Below, piece after piece: positions 1 through 11,603 of a stretch of DNA of 11,603 bases. The DNA is from Planctomycetota bacterium (GTDB lineage: Bacteria > Planctomycetota > Phycisphaerae > SM23-33). Below the pieces are notes generated by a model. That model had not been told where the DNA came from, searched no databases, and was given only the letters and a program-made list of their open reading frames with translations. The stretch covers positions 1-11,603 of the forward strand of contig JAKPKY010000249.1 of the NCBI GenBank assembly GCA_029553505.1. Direction: 5' to 3'. The translations under genes were made by a program, and so were the position numbers. Numbering within the stretch: the stretch's first letter is position 1; each line of letters starts with the position of its first letter.

Positions 1-21
1 GACAAGGCTGCGAATGTTCAT
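1..21 (-). CDS. 5' end (7 codons, MNIRSLV...) of an unidentified gene that runs off the left edge of the window, downstream of uppS
   Basis: ATG at 21-19 on the minus strand; AGGTGGAGG Shine-Dalgarno immediately upstream (reverse complement of 26-34); frame open to the window edge; only 7 codons visible so no product call. Confidence 0.3.
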
Positions 22-146
22 GGCGCCTCCACCTTCCGTGCTCGACCGGCGCGGCCGCAGTATGCACTTCCGCAGTCTATGATACCACCTTGCCCCGCCA
101 GCTACTACTACTTCTTTGTGAAGGGGCCGTTGCCCTCCCGGCCCGC

Positions 147-920
147 TCACAGGCCGCTATCGAGCACCATGCCGAAGCGGCGCTCGCGCTGGCTGAAGGC
201 CCGGATGGCGTCCAGCAAGTGCTCCGCCGCAAAGTCGGGCCACAGCACATCCATGACGACAATCTCGGCGTAAGCGATCTGCCAGAGCAGGAAGTTGCTG
301 ACGCGCAGCTCGCCGGCGGTGCGGATGACCAGGTCGGGGTCGGGCACTCCGGCGGAGTCCAGATGCGTGGAGATGGCGGCTTCGTCGATCTTCGCGGGGT
401 CGAGCGTTCCGTCGCGGGCCTCGGCGGCGACGGCGCGGACGGCGTCGACGATCTCCGCGCGCGACCCGTAATTCAACGCCAGGCACAGGAACATCCCGGT
501 GTTGGACGACGAGACGCGGACGGTCTCGTCCAGCTCGCGCAGGACATTTTCGGGCAGTCCGTCGCGCCGCCCCAGGTGCCGCACGCGGATGTTGTGGTCC
601 ATCACCGTGGGGCGCTCGTGGATGAGGTAGTCGGCGTAGAGGTGCATCAGGGCGTTGACCTCTTCGCGCGGGCGGCGCCAGTTCTCGATGGAGAAGCTGT
701 AGAGCGTCAGGGCGTCCATCCCCAGCCTGGCCGCCTCGGTGACGATGCGGCGGACGACCTTGGCGCCTTCCTGGTGCCCCACCGGGCGCGGAAGCCCACG
801 GGCGCGGGCCCAGCGCCCGTTCCCGTCCATGATGATGGCCACCGAGCGCGGAATCCGCCCCTCGCCGACGCCCAGTTCGGCCCGCGCCTTCGCGACGGCT
901 TGCGGGGATATGTCCGCCAT
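147..920 (-). CDS. uppS: Undecaprenyl-diphosphate synthase (cis-isoprenyl transferase), 257 aa from MADISPQ (alternative upstream start at 953)
   Basis: Translation carries hallmark UppS motifs (IIMDGNGRWA, ALTLYSFSIENWRRP, NYGSR, RTAGELRVSNFLLWQIAYAEIVVMDVLWPDF, RERRFG); start ATG 920-918 overlaps the purA stop as TAATG. Confidence 0.93.
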   Translation of the reverse strand: MADISPQAVAKARAELGVGEGRIPRSVAIIMDGNGRWARARGLPRPVGHQEGAKVVRRIVTEAARLGMDALTLYSFSIENWRRPREEVNALMHLYADYLIHERPTVMDHNIRVRHLGRRDGLPENVLRELDETVRVSSSNTGMFLCLALNYGSRAEIVDAVRAVAAEARDGTLDPAKIDEAAISTHLDSAGVPDPDLVIRTAGELRVSNFLLWQIAYAEIVVMDVLWPDFAAEHLLDAIRAFSQRERRFGMVLDSGL

Positions 921-2224
921 TACCGAAGCTCCTCGACGCCCGTGCGACGCCAAATGAGCATCTCCCGCTCCGGGCCCACACCGATCGACCCGACCGGGCG
1001 GCCCAGGTACTGCTCAATCCGCTCCACGTACGCCTGTGCCGCGCGGGGCAGGTCGTCGAACCGCCGGCACGCGGAGATGTCTTCCTTCCAGCCGGGCAAC
1101 GTCTCGTAGACGCACTCGGCCTGCGCCATCTCGTTGGGATCGAACGCGTCGATCGCCTTGGAGCCCACGCGGTAGCCCGTGCAGATTTTCAACTCGTCCA
1201 GGCCGGTCAGCACGTCCAGCAGCCCCAGGGCGATCTCGTGGACGCCCGACAGGTCCGCGGTGTATTTGACGAGGAACAGGTCCAGCCAGCCGCAACGCCG
1301 GGGGCGGCCCGTCGTCGTGCCGTATTCGTGCCCGCGCTGGCGGATGTAGTTCCCGGTTTCGTTGTCCTGCTCGGCGGGGAACGGTCCGGCGCCGACGCGG
1401 GTGGTGTAGGCCTTGACCAGCCCGATGACGTGCCCGACGGACGACGGAGGCACGCCCGTCCCGCTCGGGACGCCGCACGCGCTGACCGACGAGCTGGTGA
1501 CGAACGGGTAGGTTCCGTGGTCGATGTCCAGCATGGTTCCCTGCCCGCCCTCGAAGAGGATCCTCTCGCCGGCGGCGGTGGCGCGGCGGAGGAGTTCGCC
1601 CGTGTTGTCGATCATGGGCGCCAGGACGCGGCCGTGCTCGACATACTCCTCGGCGATCTGCTTTCCGTCGAGCGGTTCGGCCCCGTACAGGGCGCCGAAG
1701 ACGCGGCTCTTGATGTCGGCGATCATGCGGACCTTGTCGCGCAGGCGGTCGGGGTCGCGCAGCTCCCCGACGCGGATGGCGGTGGAGCGGTTGGCCTTGT
1801 CGCTGTAGCAAGGCCCGATTCCGCGGGCGGTGGTCCCGATCTTCGCGCCGCCGAGGCTCTGCTCGCTGAGCTGGTCCTGGAGCTTGTGCCAGGGCATGAC
1901 CACCTGGGCGCAGGCGGAGATGCGAAGGTTCCGCTCGTCGGCCTCGACGCCGCGGGCCCGCAAGCCCTCGATTTCCTTCCGGGCCACCGGCGGGTCGAAC
2001 GCCACGCCGTTTCCGATGACGTTCACCACGTCCGGGCGGAAGATTCCGCAGGGAATCAGGTGGAGGGCGAATTTCTCGGTCCCGACGACCACGGTATGCC
2101 CGGCGTTGGCCCCGCCGCAATACCTGGCGACGTACCGCGAGACGCCCGCGACGGCGTCCACGATCTTGCCCTTGCCCTCGTCACCCCATTGAAGGCCCAC
2201 GACGCAGACGTTCTTGCATGCCAT
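920..2224 (-). CDS. purA: Adenylosuccinate synthetase, 434 aa
   Basis: N-terminal P-loop GLQWGDEGKGK, GHTV, TTARGIGPCY, and the GTTGRPRRCGWLD motif typical of PurA; stop TAA at 922-920 overlaps the uppS start by 1 nt, suggesting translational coupling. Confidence 0.95.
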   Translation of the reverse strand: MACKNVCVVGLQWGDEGKGKIVDAVAGVSRYVARYCGGANAGHTVVVGTEKFALHLIPCGIFRPDVVNVIGNGVAFDPPVARKEIEGLRARGVEADERNLRISACAQVVMPWHKLQDQLSEQSLGGAKIGTTARGIGPCYSDKANRSTAIRVGELRDPDRLRDKVRMIADIKSRVFGALYGAEPLDGKQIAEEYVEHGRVLAPMIDNTGELLRRATAAGERILFEGGQGTMLDIDHGTYPFVTSSSVSACGVPSGTGVPPSSVGHVIGLVKAYTTRVGAGPFPAEQDNETGNYIRQRGHEYGTTTGRPRRCGWLDLFLVKYTADLSGVHEIALGLLDVLTGLDELKICTGYRVGSKAIDAFDPNEMAQAECVYETLPGWKEDISACRRFDDLPRAAQAYVERIEQYLGRPVGSIGVGPEREMLIWRRTGVEELR

Positions 2225-2363
2225 GATCTCTGTGGTTCTCCGTATCGGAGGCGCGCGTTCCGATCCCCTCGGAACCCCATGAGCATAAACGACGCCGCGG
2301 GGGAGTCAAGGATTCTCCGCCCGCCGGCGGGGACAACCGGAGAAAAGCCGCGGAAAGTTGTGC

Positions 2364-2387
2364 TTGACGGGGACGACTTGTTACAAT
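2364..2387 (+). promoter_or_regulatory. Candidate sigma70-type promoter with extended -10 (TGtTACAAT at 2379-2387) for the 2428 gene; TTGACG at 2364-2369 is only 12 nt upstream, so the extended -10 is probably the functional determinant
   Basis: tgcTTGACGgggacgactTGtTACAATatc read directly; ~40 nt upstream of a GTG start with a strong AGGGAG SD. Confidence 0.35.
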
Positions 2388-2427
2388 ATCTGTAGGCAGG
2401 CAATTCAGGAGTAGAGGGAGATCATTC

Positions 2428-2700
2428 GTGGTCAGTGAACGAAGAAGCGCCGCCCTGCTGGGCATCGGGCTGGACCGGGACAACGAACAATTCCGCGTGA
2501 CACGCGGACCGAATTTCTACCTCGTCGGCGGGTCGCGGGAGACCCACGAATCCATGCAGGAAAAGTGCCTCAAGTTCAACGAGAAGCTCGATTCCCGCGG
2601 AAAGCAGCTGGAGGACCTGGAGCACCGCGAGTTCCTGGATCTCGCGGCCGAATGCAGGATGAACGTCGTCGCGCCGGCCCCCGGTCGGGACGTGAAATAA
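2428..2700 (+). CDS. Hypothetical small protein, 90 aa, no recognisable family
   Basis: GTG start 7 nt after AGGGAG SD (2415-2420); own promoter; moderately charged, no signal peptide or TM; ends TAA then an AT-richer spacer. Confidence 0.55.
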   Translation: MVSERRSAALLGIGLDRDNEQFRVTRGPNFYLVGGSRETHESMQEKCLKFNEKLDSRGKQLEDLEHREFLDLAAECRMNVVAPAPGRDVK

Positions 2701-2832
2701 TTCTGAAAAATTCCCCTTGCCAATTTGCGGCAGCGGGGTTCCAATAATAAGTCATGTCGTACCATGGCCGGAAAGGGAGTTTCGGCCGAGAGGATCAGGA
2801 GGAAGAGCAAATCGTTGCACGGGAGGACGCGT

Positions 2833-3030
2833 ATGCGAGCGTTTCGCCCAAGTGCCTTCGCGCCACAGGAAGAGGTGTTGCTGGACGCAGAGGCGGAGTT
2901 GGAGAGGCAATCCAACATTCGCCTGTACGAACAGCGCGCCCAGGCCGGGATGCCTCTGTTTGAGCGCCACCCCGACCGCCAGGTCCTGTCGCTAGGTACG
3001 CCGGAGTTCGTGCTGGACATGCCTTTCTGA
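2833..3030 (+). CDS. Hypothetical small protein, 65 aa (alternative longer starts at 2764 MAGKG or 2725 in the same frame)
   Basis: ATG 2833 preceded by GGGAGG (2821-2826) at 6 nt spacing; possible promoter TTGCCA(2719-2724)-17-TCCAAT upstream; followed by a 7-bp-stem hairpin 3046-3072 without a strong T-run. Confidence 0.35.
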   Translation: MRAFRPSAFAPQEEVLLDAEAELERQSNIRLYEQRAQAGMPLFERHPDRQVLSLGTPEFVLDMPF

Positions 3031-3175
3031 GGCGTGGCGAGCCTCGTCGAGGAGAGCGACGAGCCCTTTGCCGGCCGCCCCACAAGCCCGCCTGGGCGGG
3101 TGTCGGAACGTCCCTGTGCGCAGACCGACCCGCACCGCGCCACGCGGCGATTGCGTCTCGCGCGGGCGCGGACCG

Positions 3176-3204
3176 TTGCCCTCGCGCGAAGATGGGGGCA
3201 TAAT
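3176..3204 (+). promoter_or_regulatory. Candidate promoter for ispE: TTGCCC (3176-3181) - 17 nt - CATAAT (3199-3204)
   Basis: Hexamers with canonical 17-nt spacing ~40 nt upstream of the ispE GTG start. Confidence 0.4.
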
Positions 3205-3242
3205 CCCTGTCCGCGGGCGCGGCATGCCCGCGAGGGACTTCC

Positions 3243-4154
3243 GTGACCGACCAAACCGACATCCTGCGCGTCTCGCCTCCGCTGCCGCGAATGCGGCGTC
3301 TCTCGCCGTCGCGCGTCGTGCTGCACGCGCCGGCGAAGATCAACCTGAACCTGCTGGTGGGGCCCCGCCGCGACGACGGTTATCACGGCCTGGACTCGAT
3401 CGTGGCGCGGGTGTCGCTGTACGACCGCATCGAGCTGCGCGCCCGCGACGACGGGCAGGTGGTCCTGGCTTGCGCGGGGTTCGACTGCGGGCCGGCGGAG
3501 CGGAACCTGGCGCACCTGGCGGCCGAGGCGATGCGCCGCGCCGCCGGCGCGCCGCGCGGCGCGGACATTCGCCTGGACAAACGGATCGGTCCCGGGCGCG
3601 GGCTGGGCGGCGGCTCGTCCGATGCGGCCGCCGTGCTCGAAGGACTCAACGACCTGTGGCGCTTGCGCCTGCCGCCGGAGCGGCTGGGCGAGATGGCCGC
3701 CTCGCTCGGCAGCGACGTGCCGCTGTTCCTGGGCCCGGCGACCGCGCGGATGACCGGGCGCGGGGAGATTCTCGCGCCGGTCGAGGTTCACCCCTTTTCC
3801 GCGATCCTGGTGCTGGCGCCGCGCCTGGCCTGCGCGACGCGCGAGGTGTATCGCGCGTTCGACGAGCGCCCCGCCCCGCCGGAGCGGCAGCTGCCGCCCG
3901 AAACGTTCCGCGGGCCGCCGTCGGCGTGGCGCGGGCGGCTGGTGAACCACCTGGCCAACGCCGCCTGCCGCGTCTGCCCGCCGCTGGGCGAGGTTATCGA
4001 GACCCTGCGCCGCGCGACCGGGCTGCCCGTCCACGTCACCGGCAGCGGAAGCGGGCTGTTCGTGCTCTGCGACGATTCCGGCGAGGCGCAGGCCGTCGCC
4101 GCGCACATGCCGTCGTCCCTGCGCGAGTGCAGCCTGATTGTGGAACCCGCCTGA
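3243..4154 (+). CDS. ispE: 4-diphosphocytidyl-2-C-methyl-D-erythritol kinase (MEP pathway, GHMP kinase family)
   Basis: APAKINLNLLV, RRDDGYHGL, DKRIGPGRGLGGGSSDAAAVLEGLNDLW, LGSDVPLF motifs match IspE; GTG start at 3243 with GAGGGA SD 5 nt upstream (alternative internal start MRRLSPS at 3291 lacks an SD). Confidence 0.9.
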   Translation: MTDQTDILRVSPPLPRMRRLSPSRVVLHAPAKINLNLLVGPRRDDGYHGLDSIVARVSLYDRIELRARDDGQVVLACAGFDCGPAERNLAHLAAEAMRRAAGAPRGADIRLDKRIGPGRGLGGGSSDAAAVLEGLNDLWRLRLPPERLGEMAASLGSDVPLFLGPATARMTGRGEILAPVEVHPFSAILVLAPRLACATREVYRAFDERPAPPERQLPPETFRGPPSAWRGRLVNHLANAACRVCPPLGEVIETLRRATGLPVHVTGSGSGLFVLCDDSGEAQAVAAHMPSSLRECSLIVEPA

Positions 4155-4166
4155 CGGAAGCGACCG

Positions 4167-4691
4167 TCAGTCCTTGTCGCCTTTTTTCTTGCCCTTGTCG
4201 TCATCGTCATCGTCGTCGCGGTCCTTCATGTGCTGCTGGATCGCGGCGTCGTTCTCGACGATCATCGCCTGGAGGTGCTTGACCGCCTTCTCCGTTTCGC
4301 CCTGTTTCTTGTAGAGGTCCTTGAGCGTCAGGTGCAGGGCATTGCGCAGGCCGAGGGTCTTGGTCTTCTCCAGCGTCTCCTCCAGGTCCCTGGCGATGAC
4401 GTCGTCCTTGCGGGGCAGGTCGTCCTTCAGGGCGCCCAGGGCGATCATCCCCGCCGTCGTGGGGTCGAAGCAGACGTGCTTAAGATGCTCGACCATCCCG
4501 AGCATCATGCGGATTTGCCCCATCGGCTCATGCGGCCGGGGGGGCGTGGGCTGGCCAGGCCGCGGCCCTTCCCGCGGTCCTTCCCGTTCGGGCGCCGCAT
4601 CCGGGCGAGGCTGGGCGATGGCCCACGTCGCCAGCAAAGTCGCGGCAACAACCGCCGTCACAATCACCGGCATGGCAATCCTGGTCTTCAT
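4167..4691 (-). CDS. Secreted/periplasmic hypothetical protein, 174 aa: signal peptide, Pro-rich linker, helical domain, C-terminal poly-Asp/Lys tail (DRDDDDDDDKGKKKGDKD)
   Basis: Start MKTRIAMPVIVTAVVAATLLATWAIA (ATG 4691-4689) preceded by AAAGGAA SD; typical signal peptide with AxA-like cleavage region; longer ORF to 4748 lacks an SD; convergent with ispE. Confidence 0.6.
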   Translation of the reverse strand: MKTRIAMPVIVTAVVAATLLATWAIAQPRPDAAPEREGPREGPRPGQPTPPRPHEPMGQIRMMLGMVEHLKHVCFDPTTAGMIALGALKDDLPRKDDVIARDLEETLEKTKTLGLRNALHLTLKDLYKKQGETEKAVKHLQAMIVENDAAIQQHMKDRDDDDDDDKGKKKGDKD

Positions 4692-4762
4692 GGTCGGTTC
4701 CTTTCTTCCCTTGGGGGTGAGTGATGATTCCTGGTCCACGGATGACAATTTTACCGCGGCCC

Positions 4763-4791
4763 TTGACCGTCCGACACGATCATGCTACAAG
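4763..4791 (+). promoter_or_regulatory. Candidate promoter for tRNA-Ala: TTGACC (4763-4768) - 17 nt - TACAAG (4786-4791)
   Basis: Good -35 and spacing; weak -10 (last base G); tRNA 5' end 15 nt downstream. Confidence 0.3.
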
Positions 4792-4805
4792 GAAACCTGC
4801 TGCAT

Positions 4806-4878
4806 GGGGCTGTGGCGCAGTTGGGAGCGCGTCTGCATGGCATGCAGAAGGTCGAGGGTTCAAATCCCTCCAGCTCCA
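4806..4878 (+). tRNA. tRNA-Ala (anticodon GGC), 73 nt, CCA not encoded
   Basis: Cloverleaf folded by hand: acceptor GGGGCTG/CAGCTCC with the G3:U70 wobble pair that defines Ala identity; D-stem GCGC/GCGC; anticodon stem TCTGC/GCAGA with loop ATGGCAT (GGC at 34-36), identical in stem-loop architecture to E. coli tRNA-Ala(GGC); T-stem GAGGG/CCCTC with loop TTCAAAT; discriminator A. Confidence 0.92.
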
Positions 4879-4882
4879 TTGA

Positions 4883-4911
4883 GGCGGACCTTTTCGGGTT
4901 CGCCTTTTTTA
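4883..4911 (+). terminator. Rho-independent terminator for tRNA-Ala: GGCGGACC-ttttcg-GGTTCGCC then TTTTTTATTT
   Basis: 8-bp GC-rich stem (one G:T wobble) followed by a T-run; the T-run overlaps the TAA stop (4911-4909) of the convergent minus-strand gene. Confidence 0.7.
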
Positions 4912-6192
4912 TTTCCCCGCCTTGGTTTCCGGAGGGGCTTCGCTCGCAACCATTGATTCCCTAAGGCATTGGAACGCCTCGCTCATCCGGACGGCGTCCG
5001 GCTCGCCCGAAGCGTCGAAGACCATCGCCATGGGCGCGGCGTTGAGGCCGGGACGGACTTTCGCCCCCGCGACGACCAGCCAGCGGTGCCACTTGCCGGC
5101 CGAGGGCGTCAGCACGCTGAAAATTTCCGTCGCCGTCTCGCCCGCCTGCCAGGACTTGTGGACCAGGACGAGGTATCCCTTGTCGCGGAAGTGTTGCAGG
5201 TAGGTGTCCAGGACGGCCTGCGGCGTCTTGGCCGACCGCCCCGCCAGCGCGCGGGCGAACAGCAGCCCGCCCGGCGCGGGCGTGAGGTACAACTGGGCGT
5301 AGGGTTCGATCTCGGCAACATACTTTCGTTCGCCGCGTTCGAAGCGGACCCAGCCCGTCGGGGGCCTGACCTCGATTCGCAAAGGCCCGTCGCGTTTGGA
5401 GACGGCCTGTCCGGGCGCGGCGGCGGGCGTCTCGGCCAGCGCCTTGACCAGCGCTGCCGCGAAGGGCTCGTAGAGCTTCCGCTCTCCCTCGGCCTGGTGG
5501 TCGGGCCCGCGCGGCGGGGCCTTGCCTGCCGCGACGGCCTCCAGCCAGGCGTCCAGCGCGTCGTCGGGCTCGACAAACTCCAGGCCCTCGCCCAGGCGCG
5601 TGTCGAGGGTGAAATTCGCGTCAGCGCCGTCCGCCGTCTGTCGCCACATCGTCAGCGTGCCGGCCGCGTCTTGCGGGCGCGTGCCCACGCTCACCCAGAC
5701 GGGCACGGACGCGGGCGGCTTCCACAGGCCGATCGACTCGCCGGATTTTTCCACCGGCGTCACGGAGTTCAGCACGATCCCCGACAGGCGTTGCGGGTTC
5801 AGAGAGGCCAGCGCCAGCGCCGTCGGACCGTTGGCGGCGTCGGCGACGAGCAGGAACTTCCGCGCGTCGAGGGGCTTTCCCTCGGCTGCCCGGTCCACGG
5901 CCGCCAGCAACGCCCCGACGCGCGAGGCGTCGAGTTTTTCCCCGGCCGCCGGGCGAAACACGAAGAAGCCCTTGGCGAGCAGCCGCGGAGTGAAGTGCTC
6001 CGCCGCGCCGCGCGGCCCCTCGGCCGCCAGCAGCAGCGCGGCAGGACGCTTGCCTTCGGCCGCCTTGGGAGTCAGGACCGCCAGGTTGACGGGCTCCGCC
6101 GACTGCGACGCCGGCTGCGACGCCGCATCGGCCCCCATGGCGACGGCCACCAAACCCGCCCACGCCACTGCCGCAACGATGTGCCTGTTCAT
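4909..6192 (-). CDS. Secreted hypothetical protein, 427 aa (signal peptide MNRHIVAAVAWAGLVAVAMGADA); ORF is open upstream to a TTG at 6270 but that extension overlaps the MITE-like repeat
   Basis: Long ORF with non-artefactual composition (many K/E/F/W/Y); N-terminal hydrophobic signal sequence from ATG 6192; no motifs I can assign to a family. Confidence 0.55.
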   Translation of the reverse strand: MNRHIVAAVAWAGLVAVAMGADAASQPASQSAEPVNLAVLTPKAAEGKRPAALLLAAEGPRGAAEHFTPRLLAKGFFVFRPAAGEKLDASRVGALLAAVDRAAEGKPLDARKFLLVADAANGPTALALASLNPQRLSGIVLNSVTPVEKSGESIGLWKPPASVPVWVSVGTRPQDAAGTLTMWRQTADGADANFTLDTRLGEGLEFVEPDDALDAWLEAVAAGKAPPRGPDHQAEGERKLYEPFAAALVKALAETPAAAPGQAVSKRDGPLRIEVRPPTGWVRFERGERKYVAEIEPYAQLYLTPAPGGLLFARALAGRSAKTPQAVLDTYLQHFRDKGYLVLVHKSWQAGETATEIFSVLTPSAGKWHRWLVVAGAKVRPGLNAAPMAMVFDASGEPDAVRMSEAFQCLRESMVASEAPPETKAGK

Positions 6193-6245
6193 GCCGTCAC
6201 TGAATACCCCAAATCCGCCCCGACGGCAAGAAGCGAAAATAGTAG

Positions 6246-6385
6246 CCAGGCTCTGTCTGAAAACTCGCAATCCGGGGGTGCCACGGCTTGCTTGTCAAGC
6301 CGTGTCGCCGCAAGAACACTGCTTGCAAGCAAGCAGTGCCACCCTTGTGGATACATCTGGCGAGGAGTTTTCAGACAGAGCCTGG
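6246..6385. mobile_element. MITE-like element, 140 bp: perfect 21-bp terminal inverted repeats (CCAGGCTCTGTCTGAAAACTC 6246-6266 / GAGTTTTCAGACAGAGCCTGG 6365-6385) flanked by TAG on both sides (6243-6245, 6386-6388); carries two GC-rich palindromic hairpin modules
   Basis: Inverted repeat and flanking TAG direct repeat read directly from sequence; no ORF inside; sits in the divergent promoter region between the 4909..6192 gene and mutY. Confidence 0.4.
6274..6344. repeat. Two adjacent palindromic hairpin modules (R1 family) inside the MITE-like element: GGGGGTGCCAC-GGCTTG-cttgt-CAAGCC-GTG (6274-6304) and, in opposite orientation, CACTGCTTGC-aa-GCAAGCAGTGCCACCC (6317-6344)
   Basis: The reverse complement of the second module (GGGTGGCACtGCTTGCTTGCAAGCaGTGTTC) is near-identical to 10304-10336 (GGGTGGCACgGCTTGCTTGCAAGCcGTGTTC). 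Confidence 0.6.
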
Positions 6386-6417
6386 TAGCCTGTGCATCGG
6401 TCGGAGCGCACGAACCG

Positions 6418-6446
6418 CTTGGCCGGGCGGTCGGCGGACCGTACAA
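6418..6446 (+). promoter_or_regulatory. Candidate mutY promoter: TTGGCC (6418-6423) - 17 nt - TACAAT (6441-6446), followed by a GC palindrome CCCCGCGCGGGG in the leader
   Basis: Canonical spacing; 40 nt upstream of the mutY GTG. Confidence 0.4.
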
Positions 6447-6486
6447 TGCCCCGGCCGCCCCGCGCGGGGCCGGCGGAATCCGTATC

Positions 6487-7572
6487 GTGAAGCTCTCCCC
6501 AAAGATCGTCGAAGACGTCCGGAAACGCCTGCTGGACTGGTATCGCCGCCACTGCCGCGAGATGCCCTGGCGGCAAATCCGCGACCCCTACGCCATCTGG
6601 ATTTCCGAGATCATGCTCCAGCAGACGCGGGTGACGGCCGTCGTGCCCTACTTCCGCCGATTCCTGGAGCGATTCCCCGACGCAGCGTCGCTGGCCCGGG
6701 CCCGCCTCGACGACGTGCTCAAGGCATGGGAAGGCCTGGGCTACTACAGCCGCGCGCGGAACCTCCACGCGGCCGCCAAGCGCGTCGTGGCCGACTTCGG
6801 CGGGGCACTGCCCCGCAGCGTCGAGCAACTCCGCTCGCTGCCGGGCGTGGGGCAATACACGGCCGGGGCCATCGCGAGCATCGCGTTCGGCCTGGACGAA
6901 CCCGTGCTGGACGGAAACGTGACGCGCGTGCTGTGCCGCCTGCTGCGCGTGGAATCCGACCCGCGCAGCGGCGCGACGGTGCGCGGGCTGTGGGCGGCGG
7001 CGCGGCGGCTCGTGCCGCGCGGAAAGGCCGGCCTGTTCAACCAGGCGATGATGGACCTTGGCGCGACCGTCTGCACGCCGCGCAACCCCCGCTGCGGCGC
7101 CTGCCCGCTGGCGACGCCCTGCCGCGCCCGCGCAGCCGGCGTGCAGGAGCAACTGCCGCGCAAGGCCTCCCGCAAGCCCCTGCCGCACCACACCGTCGTC
7201 TGCGCGATCGTCCGCCGGCGCGGGCGCATCCTCCTGGGCCGCCGCCGGGAAGAGGGACTGCTGGGCGGCCTGTGGGAATTCCCCGGCGGGAAGGTCGAGC
7301 CCGGCGAGTCGCTGCCGCAGGCCCTCGCGCGGGAAGTGCGAGAGGAAGTCGGCCTGGACATCCGCGTGGGCGAGCGGCTGGCCGTCGTCGAGCACGCCTA
7401 CACGCACTTCCGGATCACGCTGCACGCCTTCGACTGCCGGGCGGACAACGGGCGGGCGCGGGCGCTCGGCTGCCAGCGCGTCCGATGGGTCCGCCCAAAC
7501 GAACTCGACCAGTACGCCTTCCCCCGCGCCAACCGCCGCATCCTCCAGGCCATCACGGAATTTTCGATTTGA
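6487..7572 (+). CDS. mutY: A/G-specific adenine DNA glycosylase MutY with C-terminal NUDIX/MutT-like domain, 361 aa
   Basis: LLDWYRRH..R.MPWR, EIMLQQTRV, helix-hairpin-helix LPGVGQYTAGAIASIAFG, catalytic D in VLDGNVTRV, 4Fe-4S Cys cluster CTPRNPRCGACPLATPC, C-terminal WEFPGGKVE NUDIX-like fold; GTG start at 6487 is the first in-frame start after the promoter; the long upstream extension of the ORF (from 4969) is antisense to the previous gene. Confidence 0.9.
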   Translation: MKLSPKIVEDVRKRLLDWYRRHCREMPWRQIRDPYAIWISEIMLQQTRVTAVVPYFRRFLERFPDAASLARARLDDVLKAWEGLGYYSRARNLHAAAKRVVADFGGALPRSVEQLRSLPGVGQYTAGAIASIAFGLDEPVLDGNVTRVLCRLLRVESDPRSGATVRGLWAAARRLVPRGKAGLFNQAMMDLGATVCTPRNPRCGACPLATPCRARAAGVQEQLPRKASRKPLPHHTVVCAIVRRRGRILLGRRREEGLLGGLWEFPGGKVEPGESLPQALAREVREEVGLDIRVGERLAVVEHAYTHFRITLHAFDCRADNGRARALGCQRVRWVRPNELDQYAFPRANRRILQAITEFSI

Positions 7573-7615
7573 GATTTGACCTTCGGTCCTCGGTCTTCGG
7601 TATCCGGTATCCGGG
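7566..7615. repeat. Heptanucleotide tandem repeats: GATTTGA x2 (7566-7579, overlapping the mutY stop) then YYTCGGT-like x5 (CTTCGGT CCTCGGT CTTCGGT ATCCGGT ATCCGGG, 7581-7615)
   Basis: 7-bp periodicity read directly from sequence. Confidence 0.75.
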
Positions 7616-7725
7616 TTCCTTTCCGGGCGATGGTCGCGGCGCTGTATGGGGATTTCTTTGTTGCGAGCGTCTTGGCGACCACTCCCTTACGGTCGTGGCT
7701 CTGTAAAAGCCCGAGGCACAATTCG

Positions 7726-7858
7726 CGATTTCCGATTGCCTGCTGCCTATTGCCTTCTTCCCTCAGTCCTCCCAATTGTCAATTGACAATCGACAATTGA
7801 CAATTTCTCACCACTCTCCACTCTGCACTCTCCACTCTGCACTCACCACTCTCTCCTG
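7726..7858. repeat. Continuous-phase array of 19 imperfect heptamers. Units: CGATTTC, CGATTGC, CTGCTGC, CTATTGC, CTTCTTC, CCTCAGT, CCTCCCA, ATTGTCA, ATTGACA, ATCGACA, ATTGACA, ATTTCTC, ACCACTC, TCCACTC, TGCACTC, TCCACTC, TGCACTC, ACCACTC, TCTCCTG
   Basis: 133 bp in which sub-arrays of distinct unit sequence (TGC-type, CAATTG-type, CACTC-type) follow each other without breaking the 7-nt phase; lower GC than the flanks. Confidence 0.75.
7775..7790. promoter_or_regulatory. Perfect 16-bp palindrome ATTGTCAATTGACAAT (two CAATTG cores) embedded in the heptamer array; candidate operator for a dimeric regulator
   Basis: Self-complementary on inspection; ~100 bp upstream of the putative nfeD promoter. 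Confidence 0.4.
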
Positions 7859-7886
7859 ACATGTCCCAAAAGCGCGGGGTTGTGAC

Positions 7887-7916
7887 TTGCCAGCGCGCGG
7901 GCAGGATGGGTATCTT
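7887..7916 (+). promoter_or_regulatory. Candidate promoter of the nfeD-floT operon: TTGCCA (7887-7892) - 18 nt - TATCTT (7911-7916)
   Basis: Best hexamer pair between the repeat array and the AAGGAG SD at 7980-7985; weak call. Confidence 0.3.
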
Positions 7917-7992
7917 TCGTTCCGGCGGGCGGGGGCGCCCGCGCAGGCTGGCAGCATGGGCCTGAACGCACCTCGCGATAAGGAGTCTTGCC

Positions 7993-8628
7993 ATGACGGA
8001 ATGGTGGACGCACCTGACGATGCTGAACCAGTCGTTTTACGTGGCGGCGGGGTTCTTCAGCATCATCTTCCTGTGGCAGTTCATCGGCGCGATGCTGGGC
8101 ATGGGCCACGGCGACGTGGACCTGCATCTGGACGCGGGCGCCGACGCCGCCGACGTCGGCGGCGACAGCCTGGAGGCGCACTCGGCGCACGAGGCAGCCG
8201 ACAGCGCCGCGGCCTTCAAGGTGCTCTCCCTCCGCGCGGTGCTGGCGTTCTGCACGATGTTCGCCTGGGCCGGGGCGCTGTACCTGAACCTCGGCACGCG
8301 CGTGGCGATCGCCCTGCTGTACGCCCTGGCGTGGGGCCTGGCGGGCTGGGCGCTGGTGGCGGTGCTGGTGAACTGGATGCGCCGCCTGTCCGAGAGCGGC
8401 ACGCCGCGCCTGAGCTCGTGCGTGGGCACGACGGGCACGGTGTACCTGCACATCCCGGCCGGCGGGTGCGGCGAGGCGCGCGTGATGGTCAGCGGGGTCA
8501 TCTCGACGGTCAAGGCCCGCGCCGCCGACGGCGGGCAGATGGTCGCGGGCACGCCCGTCCGCGTGACCGCCGTGCTGGATCACTCCACGATATCGGTCGC
8601 CCCTGTCACGGGGGAGAAAACTGCCTGA
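7993..8628 (+). CDS. nfeD: NfeD-like membrane protein (short NfeD/YuaF type): N-terminal TM helices plus C-terminal OB-fold beta-barrel, 211 aa
   Basis: AAGGAG SD 7 nt upstream of the ATG; two or three hydrophobic helices (FYVAAGFFSIIFLWQFIGAMLG, AVLAFCTMFAWAGALYL, IALLYALAWGLAGWALVAVLV) then GTVYLHIPAGGCGEARVMVSGVISTVKARAADGGQMVAGTPVRVTAVLDHSTISV typical of the NfeD C-terminal domain; sits immediately upstream of a flotillin gene, as in the B. subtilis yuaF-yuaG pair. Confidence 0.75.
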   Translation: MTEWWTHLTMLNQSFYVAAGFFSIIFLWQFIGAMLGMGHGDVDLHLDAGADAADVGGDSLEAHSAHEAADSAAAFKVLSLRAVLAFCTMFAWAGALYLNLGTRVAIALLYALAWGLAGWALVAVLVNWMRRLSESGTPRLSSCVGTTGTVYLHIPAGGCGEARVMVSGVISTVKARAADGGQMVAGTPVRVTAVLDHSTISVAPVTGEKTA

Positions 8629-8779
8629 CAAAACGAACCGCGGAGTTCGCAGTCCCGAAGGGATGCCTTCGGCAAGGACGCGGAGTCAGAGAAATGAATT
8701 AGAAGTCTTCTCAGCGACCTCTGTGCCCTCTGCGGTGGGGATTTTTGTTCTTGGACTTCAAGGGAAAGGAACAGGACCA

Positions 8780-10270
8780 ATGAACGCAATGACGGCAATG
8801 CCGGCCCTTCTGGCGGCGACGGGCGACGAGGGGGGATTCCCCACCGGGGTCGTGCTGACGCTGATGCTCCTGGTCATCGGGTTCGGCGTGCTGATGTTCT
8901 TCTTCAGCCGCATCCGCCGGTGCCCCTCCAACAAGGTGCTGGTCATCTACGGGAAAACGGGCAGCGGCGCCGCGCGGTGCGTGCACGGCGGAATGGCGTT
9001 CGTCTGGCCGCTGATCCAGGCGTACGACTACCTGGACCTCGAGCCGTTCGTCGTGCCGATCGACCTGACCAACGCGCTGTCGCAGGAGAACATCCGCGTG
9101 TCGGTTCCGACGACGGTGACGGCCGCCATCTCCAACCAGCCGGGCGTCATGGAAAACGCCGCCATCCGACTGCTGGGACTGACGCGCGGGCAGATTCAGG
9201 CGCAGGCGCAGGACATCATCCTCGGGCAGATGCGCGCGGTCATCGCCACGATGAAGATCGAGGACATCAACCGCGATCGCCAGGCGTTCATGAGCGCGGT
9301 GAACGAGGCCGTGACGTTCGAGTTGGAGAAGATCGGCCTGGGCGTCATCAACGTCAACATCCGCGACATCGAGGACGAGTCGGGATACATCAAGGCGCTG
9401 GGGCGCAAGGCGGCGGCCGAGGCCATCAACCAGGCCAACATCGACGTCGCCGAGCAGGAGAAGCGCGGGCAGACGGGCGTGGCCGAGCGCCAGCGCGACA
9501 CGCGCATCGCGGTGGCCAACGCCAACGCGCTGGCGGACATCGGCGAATCGCAGGCCAGCCGCGACCGGCGACAGAAAGTCGCCGGGCTCGAGGCGCAGGC
9601 GGTCGAGGCCGAAACCGACGCCGACGCCAAGAAGGCCTCCTACCGCGCCAACCAGCGCGTGGCCGAGGAGCAGGCGCGCAACCGGTCGGAATCGGCCGGC
9701 AAGGAGGCCGACGGCGCCATCCGCGTCGCGCAGGAAGTCGCCCAGAAAAAGGCCGAGGAAGCTCGCGCCCAGCGCGAGCAGGCGCGCCTGAACGCCGAGG
9801 TGGTCGTGCCCGCCAACGCCCAGCGGGAGAAGGTCATCATCGCCGCCGAGGCCGAGAAACAGCAGTCCATCCGGATCGCCGAAGGACAGGCCGCCGCCAC
9901 CCTCGCCAAGATGCAGGCCGAGGCCAAGGGCGTCCAGGCCATCCTCGACGGAAAGGCCGAGGGCTACCAGCGACTCGTCGAGGCGTGCAAGGCGGCCGAG
10001 CAGGTGGCCGCCCTGCTGCTCATCGAGAAGCTCGCGGACGTCGCGGCCGTCCAGGCCCAGGCGATCAAGGACCTGCCCATCGAGAAGGTCATCGTCTGGG
10101 ACGGCGGCGGCGACGGCGAGGGCGGGCTCAAGGGGCTGGGCGGACGGCTGCTCGGGGCCCTGCCGCCCATGCACGACCTGGCCAAGCAGGTCGGGCTGGA
10201 GCTGCCGGAGTTCCTCGGGCGCATCGCGGCGGAAGCCAACAAGACGCCAAAGCCCGCCAAGGACGCCTGA
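8780..10270 (+). CDS. floT: Flotillin-like SPFH/band-7 protein, 496 aa
   Basis: AAAGGAA SD 9 nt before ATG 8780; N-terminal membrane hairpin (GVVLTLMLLVIGFGVLMFFF) then SPFH domain (KVLVIYGKTGS..., IEDINRDRQAF, GYIKALGRKAAAE); long Ala/Glu/Gln-rich coiled-coil (EA-repeat) region; C-terminal KVIVWDGGGDGEGG. The in-frame extension back to 8663 has no SD and is judged artefactual. Confidence 0.88.
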   Translation: MNAMTAMPALLAATGDEGGFPTGVVLTLMLLVIGFGVLMFFFSRIRRCPSNKVLVIYGKTGSGAARCVHGGMAFVWPLIQAYDYLDLEPFVVPIDLTNALSQENIRVSVPTTVTAAISNQPGVMENAAIRLLGLTRGQIQAQAQDIILGQMRAVIATMKIEDINRDRQAFMSAVNEAVTFELEKIGLGVINVNIRDIEDESGYIKALGRKAAAEAINQANIDVAEQEKRGQTGVAERQRDTRIAVANANALADIGESQASRDRRQKVAGLEAQAVEAETDADAKKASYRANQRVAEEQARNRSESAGKEADGAIRVAQEVAQKKAEEARAQREQARLNAEVVVPANAQREKVIIAAEAEKQQSIRIAEGQAAATLAKMQAEAKGVQAILDGKAEGYQRLVEACKAAEQVAALLLIEKLADVAAVQAQAIKDLPIEKVIVWDGGGDGEGGLKGLGGRLLGALPPMHDLAKQVGLELPEFLGRIAAEANKTPKPAKDA

Positions 10271-10296
10271 CGCGGCGTGACGTTTCCCGCAAGCCG
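10271..10296 (+). repeat. 26-nt direct repeat CGCGGCGTGAcGTTTCCCGCAAGCCG immediately after the floT stop (copy 1; copy 2 at 10901-10926)
   Basis: 25/26 identity with 10901-10926; leader segment of the REP-like composite element. Confidence 0.7.
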
Positions 10297-10303
10297 CGGC
10301 GAC

Positions 10304-10338
10304 GGGTGGCACGGCTTGCTTGCAAGCCGTGTTCATAC
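10304..10338 (+). repeat. R1 palindromic module GGGTGGCAC-GGCTTG-cttg-CAAGCC-GTGTTCAT (9-bp stem hairpin)
   Basis: Near-identical to the reverse complement of 6312-6344 and related to 6274-6304. Confidence 0.65.
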
Positions 10339-10367
10339 CTCGCGCATGCGTGCGGGGCACTACGGAT

Positions 10368-10440
10368 GGGTGCCACGGCCAAGCGCTGTCTGCTTGGCCG
10401 TGCGGACACCCTCAAGCACACGACGCTTGAGGGTGGCACC
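10368..10440 (+). repeat. R2 element, 73 nt, predicted three-way junction: outer stem GGTGCCA/TGGCACC; hairpin 1 GGCCAAGC-gctgtct-GCTTGGCC; linker GTGCGGACA; hairpin 2 CCCTCAAGC-acacgac-GCTTGAGGG
   Basis: 70/73 identical to 10936-11008; lies in the 5' leader of the bPH gene. Confidence 0.7.
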
Positions 10441-10460
10441 TGCCCAAGACGGAGTGAACC

Positions 10461-10910
10461 ATGGAAATGACGATGGAGATTCAGCGCCGCAAGGTGGAGA
10501 GTTACCTGCTCTGGCAGGCGGCGCTGACGTTTCTGCTGATCGGGGTGTGCACGTGGGGCGTCGGCCTGGCCGTGGGGTTGTTGTACCTGCTGACGTTCGG
10601 CCCGTACGTCGCCCGCCGGCGGGCCGAGGCGCTGGAGTACCGCCTGGACGGAACGACCGTGCGGATCCGCGAGGGATTCCTCTTCATCAAGCACAAGAGC
10701 ATCCCGCTGGACCGCGTGACGGACATCGTGATGGACCAGGGCCCGCTGCTGCGGCACTACGGGCTGTGGACGCTGAAGCTCCAGACGGCCGGCGTCGGCC
10801 AGGGGCGTGCCGAGGGCGTACTGTACGGCCTGACGGAACCCGAGCGCATCCGCGAGATGCTGATCGCCGCCCGCGACCAGGCCGCCCGCCGCGGCGACTA
10901 CGCGGCGTGA
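10461..10910 (+). CDS. Bacterial PH-domain (bPH_2 / YdbS-like, DUF304-type) membrane protein, 149 aa
   Basis: GGAG 8 nt upstream of the ATG; two N-terminal TM helices (LLWQAALTFLLIGVCTWGVGLAVGLLYLLTF) followed by a ~90-aa domain with the characteristic IPLDRVTDI...QGPLLRHYGLWTLKLQTAG pattern of bPH_2 proteins. Confidence 0.75.
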   Translation: MEMTMEIQRRKVESYLLWQAALTFLLIGVCTWGVGLAVGLLYLLTFGPYVARRRAEALEYRLDGTTVRIREGFLFIKHKSIPLDRVTDIVMDQGPLLRHYGLWTLKLQTAGVGQGRAEGVLYGLTEPERIREMLIAARDQAARRGDYAA

Positions 10911-10926
10911 TGTTTCCCGCAAGCCG
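10901..10926 (+). repeat. 26-nt direct repeat CGCGGCGTGAtGTTTCCCGCAAGCCG (copy 2); its first 10 nt encode the last three codons and TGA stop of the bPH gene
   Basis: 25/26 identity with 10271-10296. Confidence 0.7.
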
Positions 10927-10935
10927 GGTCTATCT

Positions 10936-11008
10936 GGGTGCCACGGCCTGGCGCTGTCTGCTTGGCCGTGCGGACACCCTCAAGCACACGACGCTTGAGG
11001 GTGGCGCC
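10936..11008 (+). repeat. R2 element, copy 2 (GGGTGCCACGGCCtgGCGCTGTCTGCTTGGCCGTGCGGACACCCTCAAGCACACGACGCTTGAGGGTGGCgCC)
   Basis: 96% identical to 10368-10440; differences are AA->TG in the hairpin-1 5' arm (weakens pairing) and A->G in the outer stem (keeps G:U). Confidence 0.7.
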
Positions 11009-11026
11009 CAACAGTGGGCGTCGGGG

Positions 11027-11060
11027 AAAAAAAGAACGCCGCCTCTGTGAGGCGGCGTTC
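11027..11060 (-). terminator. Rho-independent terminator of the cold-shock gene: perfect 12-bp stem GAACGCCGCCTC / GAGGCGGCGTTC, 3-nt loop, followed on the minus strand by a T7 run
   Basis: Read directly; 25 nt downstream of the csp stop; also closes the convergent bPH transcript (no T-run in that direction). Confidence 0.8.
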
Positions 11061-11084
11061 CTGTGATTCATGCCGCGGGCGGGA

Positions 11085-11285
11085 TTAGCCCTTGCGGACG
11101 TTGACGGCCTTGGGGCCCTTCGGACCCTGCGTCAGGTCGAACGTCACGGTTTCGCCTTCGGCCAGCGACTTGAAGCCTTCGCCCTGGATGTCTCCGTGAT
11201 GGACGAACGCATCGGTGCCGTCATCGGCCGTAATGAATCCGAAACCCTTGGAATCGTTGAACCACTTCACCTTGCCGGTTGCCAT
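11085..11285 (-). CDS. cspA: Cold-shock protein, CspA family, 66 aa ([18 protein letters not shown]...)
   Basis: RNP-1 KGFGFI and RNP-2-like VFVHH motifs; AAGGAG SD 8 nt upstream of the second ATG (11285); the first ATG at 11291 is too close to the SD. Confidence 0.9.
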
Positions 11286-11291
11286 ACTCAT

Positions 11292-11503
11292 GGCTCCTTG
11301 TCATCAGGCACGTTTGTTCTCGAGCGTGTTCTCAAGCAACGAAACCGCAACGGTGAAGGGATTCACGGGGGCGGAAGACCTGAGTGTCAACTGTAGAAGA
11401 ATGCGAGTGCCGATCGTATTCGCCGGCGGCAAGCGAGGAACCTTTCCCCGCGGACCGTCAGCCATGTTGACTCAGGGTAGCGTTCCGCGCGGGGGAAGTC
11501 AAA
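11292..11503 (-). promoter_or_regulatory. Long (~200 nt) 5' untranslated leader of the csp gene, with a possible promoter TTGACT - 17 nt - TACCCT near 11470-11503 (minus strand)
   Basis: Csp genes typically carry long structured 5' UTRs; the hexamers are weak; the 67-aa ORF 11387..11590 here is judged spurious. Confidence 0.3.
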
Positions 11504-11517
11504 GCAATTCGCAAATA

Positions 11518-11584
11518 TCCCGCGCGCGGTTTCGCGGCGGCGCGCGGGAAACGACAACGCCCACGGAGGGCTGTCCGTGGGCGT
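11518..11584. other. Two GC-rich hairpins: CCCGCGCGC...GCGCGCGGG (11519-11548) and CGCCCACGGA-gggctg-TCCGTGGGCG (11559-11584, followed by TTTGCATTTG)
   Basis: Possible terminator(s) of an upstream minus-strand gene beyond the window, or a plus-strand terminator; read directly. Confidence 0.3.
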
Positions 11585-11603
11585 TTGCATTTGCCGTATG
11601 CGG

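Follow-up and report, generated by a model that had tools for sequence, protein, structure and literature searches.

Heptanucleotide simple sequence repeats (SSRs) make up the commonest class of long SSRs in most prokaryotic genomes, and their excess has been proposed to result from how long a piece of DNA the polymerase contacts, which would favour slippage (Mrázek, Guo and Shah 2007, as cited in PMC4679880 and PMC4692102). Here, we analysed a set of such heptamers, named array A (positions 7566-7615), which overruns the stop codon of the glycosylase gene mutY on a stretch of 11,603 nucleotides from a Planctomycetota bacterium of the Phycisphaerae (contig JAKPKY010000249.1 of assembly GCA_029553505.1, positions 1 to 11,603; hereafter the window). 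A further heptamer array (array B, 7726-7858) lies downstream in the spacer that separates mutY from an nfeD-like gene. Array A adds a new lineage to a known and functionally unexplained class, and the spacer that harbours it is repeat-prone at three scales. We read array A as a composite, microsatellite-like heptanucleotide SSR, arisen as a near-neutral product of replication slippage in a spacer that tolerates such events, and we put the probability of this reading at roughly 0.62. No sequence-specific function is assigned to it: array A would be at most neutral spacer DNA or a 3' untranslated region.

Array A resembles the heptamers of the long SSR class (LSSR 5-11) in being organized head-to-tail, intergenic, longer than chance, devoid of known function and attributed to slippage. 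It departs from the long homogeneous runs of this class by being short and composite, with two to three units per type, and from the known hosts by its occurrence in a metagenome-assembled genome (MAG) of Phycisphaerae (Planctomycetota). A preference for the seven-nucleotide period was also apparent in unrelated bacterial loci that had been retrieved for other purposes (~594 kb in total), where runs of high self-identity numbered 14 at lag 7, zero to five at any one of the lags 4-6 and 8-13, and nine at lag 14, the harmonic of 7. These lag-7 runs, whose unit sequences differ, include examples from Caldilineae, Anaerolineae, Thermoflexales and another member of the Phycisphaerae, and their dominance agrees with the published predominance of heptanucleotide SSRs (Mrázek 2007). 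Our literature search retrieved no paper tying heptamer repeats to Planctomycetes.

The short tandemly repeated repetitive (STRR) sequences of cyanobacteria are built on the units CCCCAGT, TTGGTCA and CAACAGT (STRR1 to STRR3), and genome-wide dispersal is their hallmark. In contrast, array A is made of GATTTGA, YYTCGGT and ATCCGGK and is found in a member of the Phycisphaerae. What it shares with the STRRs of Calothrix and Nostoc, as far as these are presented in PMC4692102, is the gene-adjacent and non-coding position of tandem heptamers, with several unit types per genome. TAACTGA direct repeats, described in marine Beggiatoaceae, Cyanobacteria and Bacteroidetes (MacGregor 2015, PMC4679880), are likewise intergenic with two to six heptamer copies per set, and the ACCGARR arrays of IMG/VR contigs (YYTCGGT on the reverse strand, see below) lie similarly near start codons. 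Array A differs from them in unit sequence and in position: its plus strand follows a stop codon, and its reverse strand enters mutY antisense and reaches only an antisense frame instead of ending just upstream of a real gene start.

Heptamers that form G-quadruplexes (GGGAATC and GGGGAYT) are found in Xanthomonas and Nostoc, where their length and sequence vary among related species (Rehm 2015, PMC4692102). Like them, array A is an intergenic heptamer SSR located within 0-50 bp of a start or stop codon; unlike them, it has no G-quadruplex potential because neither strand carries four runs of at least three G. Indeed, the GGG at 7613-7615 is the only run of three G or three C in 7566-7615, and a G-quadruplex was rejected as a candidate. 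Finally, phase-variable contingency SSRs are known from host-adapted pathogens, as exemplified by the heptanucleotide or tetranucleotide tracts of Haemophilus. Array A also consists of tandem short units at a coding end and is slippage-prone in principle, but it is short, impure and without observed copy-number polymorphism among five near-identical assemblies. Besides, unit changes alter neither frame nor promoter spacing: the frame of mutY stays as it is, since its stop codon comes before the remainder of the array, the later units are untranslated, and a long distance separates array A from the promoter-like site (7887-7916).

Heptamer periodicity at the mutY stop codon

The mutY gene of the window (6487-7572, plus strand) starts with GTG, ends with TGA at 7570-7572 and encodes an A/G-specific adenine glycosylase of 361 amino acids with the Pfam domains HhH-GPD, HHH, NUDIX_4 and EndIII_4Fe-2S; the protein is 100% identical to a database entry of the same name from a Phycisphaerae bacterium (P0121). 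The initial annotation had placed a second heptamer set, separate from array B, directly at this stop codon, and its unit boundaries were reproduced on re-reading of the plus strand: GATTTGA twice (7566-7579), a single C (7580) and five heptamers (7581-7615). The TGA of mutY does lie within the first GATTTGA, which encodes the final codons (Ser, Ile, stop), and the pair is directly preceded on its 5' side by a degenerate GATTTGA-like unit, AATTTTC (7559-7565). Among the five heptamers that had been described as YYTCGGT-type, the first three fit this type (CTTCGGT CCTCGGT CTTCGGT, 7581-7601, 21 bp), while the last two do not (ATCCGGT ATCCGGG, 7602-7615) and form a block of their own that closes the array. 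The count of at least 26 heptamer units of six or more types holds for this window (seven units in array A plus 19 in array B). Arrays A and B also differ in register as claimed (7581 mod 7 = 0, 7726 mod 7 = 5). This phase difference carries no information, because the non-periodic 121-bp core between the two sets varies in copy number among assemblies (see below).

Self-identity at lag 7 amounts to 0.77 over 7566-7615 and 0.82 over 7581-7615, compared with 0.1-0.33 at other lags. In the best 35-nt window, lag-7 matches number 27/35 in array A and 29/35 in array B; first-order Markov simulations went no higher than 26 when modelled on the whole window (n = 300, lags 4-12) and no higher than 23 in simulations with the composition of the spacer (n = 2000). 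Since the simulations never attained the observed 27/35, the 7-nt periodicity is real. As in heptanucleotide SSRs of the LSSR 5-11 class, array A runs head-to-tail with a single period, exceeds statistical expectation in length (27/35 versus the simulations) and is mainly non-coding, being located between the end of mutY (7572) and the start of nfeD (7993) with a coding overlap of only 7 nt (the last mutY codons and the stop). A chance pattern or an assembly artefact could be suspected from the blocks taken one by one. With two to three units each, the homogeneous blocks alone would not exceed statistical expectation, and Tandem Repeats Finder (TRF) scored the YYTCGGT block at 31 (7583-7601, period 7, 91% matches) and the ATCCGGK block at 34 (7598-7614, 100% matches), both under its default threshold of 50. 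However, the observed lag-7 score was never reached in the whole-window simulations and JGI, ENA (SPAdes and MEGAHIT) and NCBI assemblies, made independently, all contain the same sequence, and we consider this explanation as already effectively refuted.

The block structure suggests how array A may have been generated. A 7-nt unit would have been duplicated by slippage or misalignment in 7-nt steps, its copies would have acquired point changes (CTTCGGT/CCTCGGT; ATCCGGT/ATCCGGG), and re-duplication of the mutated units would have yielded blocks of two to three near-identical units, a process that may have extended over the last mutY codons and the stop. Blocks that differ internally by single bases and the 14-nt super-period of array B are both expected from repeated slippage and mutation. 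A tandem duplication of ~204 bp would also have taken place in the same spacer, with a junction combining the start of array B and the end of array A.

Overrunning the stop codon of mutY should be harmless, because the first unit keeps an in-frame TGA and the MutY tail is not conserved there. Indeed, the NUDIX_4 match stops 7 residues short of the MutY end, the final residues TEFSI lie beyond the conserved end of the family (...YAFPRANRRI...), and MutY homologues carry past this motif unrelated tails of ~3-30 residues. Whether unit number affects the length of the MutY C-terminus had been raised as a question in the initial annotation. It does not: the in-frame TGA is already in the first GATTTGA, for which reason gain or loss of later GATTTGA units leaves MutY unchanged, and the second TGA (7577-7579) is not in the mutY frame. 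If array A is a slippage product, little changes in the general picture. A Planctomycetota (Phycisphaerae) example would join the long-noted, unexplained excess of bacterial heptanucleotide SSRs, and heptamer arrays could be said to overrun a stop codon with the protein unaffected.

The closest MutY loci (65-68% amino acid identity; L001, L329, L330) display no synteny with the window and no heptamers after the stop codon; the best genome match to MutY reaches 65% and the best database homologues 66-68%, with different neighbours. Relatives anchored on the downstream flotillin gene (80-82% identity) have no mutY upstream. Judging from these sequence comparisons, array A is not a conserved feature of mutY, because MutY relatives lack it and flotillin relatives lack an upstream mutY.

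Searches for RNA and termination signals were negative. At gathering score, Rfam retrieved only a tRNA in the window and nothing below E = 0.05 in the spacer, a permissive Rfam search gave only chance-level microRNA or flavivirus matches, and the fold energies of both strands of array A were no better than those of shuffles (z = -0.8 and -0.3). A structured RNA was rejected on the basis of the missing Rfam match and fold, as were UUCG tetraloop hairpins, because on inspection no stems flank the CUUCGG strings. No intrinsic (Rho-independent) terminator was found in 7300-8200 on either strand. A Rho utilisation (rut) site was also discarded for array A, in which C equals G; only array B is C-rich and G-poor.

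Units within 7581-7615 share a CGG/YCGG core at 7-nt intervals, which reappears in hairpin arms (GGAACNC / GTTCC) of the longer spacer found in L081 (see below). The units might accordingly be reiterated sites of a DNA-binding protein (iteron- or operator-like) or a slipped or bent DNA element in nucleoid organisation, for which it may be relevant that three units make 21 bp, the equivalent of two helical turns. We give very little credence to this idea: three unit types in 50 bp, and more than six across the spacer, are unlike a single specificity, a 7-bp spacing places successive sites on differing faces of the helix, the units are not conserved in relatives, and no candidate regulator gene lies nearby.

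A larger tandem unit in the mutY-nfeD spacer

Five assemblies of the locus were compared: the window, an 18.5-kb JGI contig (L081), L083/L090 (a scaffold with N gaps and a SPAdes contig, respectively), the SPAdes contig L084 (array B only) and a MEGAHIT k141 contig (L089). By blastn, identity with the window is 99.9% for L081 and 100% for L083, L084, L089 and L090. A database entry 100% identical to the downstream flotillin is located on L081 and is accompanied by 99% relatives, and MutY is present on three further contigs. The compared assemblies represent essentially one population. The variation in unit number between isolates that the initial annotation proposed to look for was not seen, the heptamers being base-for-base equal in the five assemblies, all 99.9-100% identical.

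What varies among the assemblies is a ~204-bp unit, not the heptamers. The spacer length of ~420 bp initially reported for mutY-nfeD is correct for the window and L089 (420 bp) and does not extend to L081, in which the spacer measures 997 bp (+577 bp). A non-periodic core of 121 bp (7610-7730, plus strand) occurs once in the window and L089 and four times in L081, where the copies start at 8258, 8462, 8666 and 8835 (start-to-start distances of 204, 204 and 169 bp; repeat region 8258-8955), the ~204-bp tandem unit being composed of the core and a ~83-bp linker. The first and last L081 copies do not differ from the window core (alignment A1), and blastn matched 7610-7730 twice in L081. L083 holds pieces of all four units, and L090 and L084 end inside the repeat. 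At its 3' end, array A overlaps by TCCGGG the start of the sequence common to all ~204-bp units, and the string TTCG(G)TATCCGGG is found once per inter-unit linker of L081. In the linker, the first array B units CGATTGCCTGCT come at the start and are fused to the closing part of array A TTCGTATCCGGG; it follows that the heptamer arrays are older than the large duplication, whose junction they mark.

The one-copy spacer is probably a real allele, because the shared 121 nt are shorter than the k of 141 used for L089; assembly collapse is the alternative. The 420-bp spacer of the window is probably a shortened form, as a true deletion allele or a collapsed assembly, of the ~1-kb spacer with four units, which makes repeat counts from short-read MAG contigs unreliable at this locus. 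More notable than the heptamers themselves, and located outside the coordinates of array A, are the contrast between one-copy and four-copy spacers and the heptamer arrays that the relative L087 has right before a shared promoter-like block (see below).

A coding repeat was rejected for L081: open reading frames (ORFs) run in multiple frames on both strands with Arg/Cys/Pro-rich products, and every frame is interrupted by the 35-bp deletion of unit 3. The gene call of 243 amino acids over the repeat region is treated as spurious. The 121-bp core gave no exact 28-mer match in IMG/VR and nothing by blastn against plasmids and phages; a 20-mer scan of JGI metagenomes, uninformative as the scanned set did not contain the source contig, returned seven unrelated chance matches. 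Each linker of L081 (8379-8461, 8583-8665 and 8752-8834) also contains an imperfect hairpin of ~66 nt, with arms made of GGAACTC GGAACAC GGAACCC (7-nt spacing) and CGGTTCC CCAGTTCC CTTGTTCC GGGTTCC (7-8-nt spacing). This hairpin is flanked by TCCGGG direct repeats, as if inserted at the duplication junction, and its GGAAC bears a candidate likeness to the -35 box of extracytoplasmic function (ECF) sigma factors.

Array B (7726-7858, plus strand) comprises 19 heptamer units, including CGATTKC, ATTGACA and CCACTCT types, and has a 14-nt super-period with 96% matches. On the plus strand of the window, C is most in excess and G scarcest in a stretch of 78 nt within 7730-7888 (C/G 6.6). The composition of 7730-7888 is the one expected for a putative rut site after mutY, and the same region holds TTGACA-like units in tandem as well as TTGTCAATTGACAA, a perfect palindrome. 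At the end of array B, the block CTGACATGTC..AAA..TTGTGACTTG..CGGG (7856-7901, plus strand; alignment A2 with 8496-8540 of L087) overlaps a promoter-like site obtained by promoter scan (TTGCCA-18-TATCTT, 7887-7916). This block is common to two Phycisphaerae whose flotillins are 80% identical and stands right after differing heptamer arrays, with CCACTCT units in the window and AGGCA and TTTGNNN units in L087. It is probably the promoter region of an nfeD-flotillin operon. The first gene (7993-8628, plus strand) encodes an nfeD-like membrane protein (weak Pfam NfeD match) and is covered by gene calls in L081; it starts 378 nt past array A in the one-copy form and ~960 nt past it in the four-copy form. 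It is followed by a flotillin/SPFH gene (ORF 8663-10270, Pfam Band_7; 100% identical to P0001), for which the database start gives 496 amino acids.

The heptamers could alternatively be part of a hypermutable regulatory spacer, of the contingency or variable-number tandem repeat (VNTR) kind, in which repeats of 7, 14 and 204 bp would tune mutY termination, the nfeD-flotillin promoter in its distance and strength, or both. Such a role would fit with the 204-bp unit being present in one copy (window, L089), four copies (L081) or as pieces of u1-u4 (L083/L090/L084), the more so as the one-copy contig probably stems from real reads, with a core shorter than k. It would also fit with the tandem TTGACA-like units and the strongest C-over-G, rut-like stretch (C/G 6.6) of array B, and with the L087 heptamer arrays holding the same position relative to the promoter-like block. 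Nevertheless, we judge it unlikely: the heptamer units are invariant in every assembly, array A has as much C as G and is not rut-like, it lies ~380-960 nt upstream of the nfeD start, and the one-copy form could be due to assembly collapse.

Viral ACCGARR arrays and the reverse strand

Three tandem YYTCGGT units were found in 55 IMG/VR contigs, far above the ~1-3 matches expected by chance according to an estimate made by hand (36 bits). Permuted heptamers of equal composition were present in 56 and at least 120 contigs. Since these controls are equally or more frequent, YYTCGGT is not special and any heptamer SSR is common in this database; a dispersed, special YYTCGGT family was rejected. 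On the reverse strand, the resulting ACCGARR arrays are often followed, 2-14 nt further on, by an ATG, as ACCGGAGGTTAAAT-ATG, sometimes with GGAGG in between. For 24/50 non-redundant ACCGARR arrays, an ORF of 60 amino acids or more has its start codon within 30 nt, compared with 13/50 on the opposite strand and 53/294 for the pooled permuted controls (Fisher p = 0.04 and 1e-5, respectively). Several (ACCGAAA/ACCGAAG)n arrays before ATG were observed per contig in L099, L112, L117, L120, L132, L140 and others, which are viral with a GC content of 62-65%.

By analogy, the minus strand of array A (ACCGAAG ACCGAGG ACCGAAG ...) might specify an RNA element, a 5' leader like that of the TAACTGA repeats of Beggiatoaceae (MacGregor 2015, PMC4679880), by which a small antisense ORF would have its translation driven or regulated, or it might be the relic of such a leader. 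In line with the proximity to starts of 24/50 ACCGARR arrays, above both comparison sets, an ATG at 7553 (minus strand), 27 nt past array A, opens a frame of 51 codons. However, this frame is Arg-rich, overlaps the conserved mutY NUDIX domain in antisense and is called as a gene in none of the assemblies; its high GC content at third codon positions is uninformative because the frame mirrors the third codon positions of mutY. In addition, the enrichment is inflated by related phage contigs (pseudo-replication), control heptamers are frequently near starts too, and relatives lack array A. Because related phages inflate the counts and the strand concerned enters mutY antisense in the window, the leader is a weak rival, which we regard as very unlikely. 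A more ambitious view would see the whole mutY-nfeD spacer as a multi-scale hypermutable cassette (7-, 14- and 204-bp units), polymorphic in Phycisphaerae populations, setting the expression of the nfeD-flotillin operon or of an antisense RNA directed at the 3' end of mutY, with ACCGARR as undescribed start-proximal leader repeats that are also present in GC-rich phage contigs. This combination strikes us as highly improbable.

Replication slippage is retained as the best explanation for array A, and several observations weigh against it. The accessible part of the genome of this organism is ~18.5 kb, in which arrays are seen only in this spacer. The absence of copy-number variation says little on mutability because the assemblies are 99.9-100% identical, and the comparisons that bear on conservation cover near-identical assemblies and distant relatives. 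In the equivalent spacer of L087, the promoter-like block is likewise preceded by heptamer arrays, which could mean selection for arrays at this locus, though this concerns array B. Moreover, ACCGARR arrays in IMG/VR are enriched directly upstream of start codons. Three of the observations made here are possibly worth a systematic study: the lag-7 dominance in arbitrary loci, ACCGARR near phage starts, and the heptamers that precede the nfeD-operon promoter block in two species.

Other repeats of the window and of related loci

Heptamer arrays were also encountered at mutY loci of Chloroflexi (L005 2866-3016, L006 2955-3018, L026 6833-6905 and L002 700-743), with the units GAGGCAA (nine copies), ATTCCRC (three to four) and CAYTTCG (eight). 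The ATTCCRC units of L005 and L006 (21 nt, 7 codons) belong to an open frame that runs uninterrupted into the MutY N-terminus, and they differ between the two MAGs at equal count.

Besides heptamers, the window contains GC-rich palindromes reminiscent of repetitive extragenic palindromic (REP) elements (GGGTGCCACGGC..GCCGTG and CTGCTTGCAAGCAAGCAG) in the intergenic regions 6270-6345, 10304-10334, 10367-10440 and 10935-11008. Two REP-like copies of 74 nt (96% identical), together with a 27-nt repeat (10270-10296 and 10900-10926), flank a gene coding for a bPH_2-domain protein (10461-10910). Upstream of mutY, a perfect inverted repeat of 21 nt (CCAGGCTCTGTCTGAAAACTC; 6246-6266 / 6365-6385) encloses 98 nt with REP-like hairpins, an organization resembling that of miniature inverted-repeat transposable elements (MITEs). 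At the other end of the window, positions 1-253, which adjoin a prenyltransferase gene, do not match 645-897 of L081, though the rest is 99.9% identical; this mismatch reflects either a strain-level rearrangement, an insertion or deletion, or a misjoin at the contig end. Finally, a tRNA gene (4806-4878; Rfam RF00005, 67 bits) occupies the spacer upstream of the long ORFs that precede mutY.

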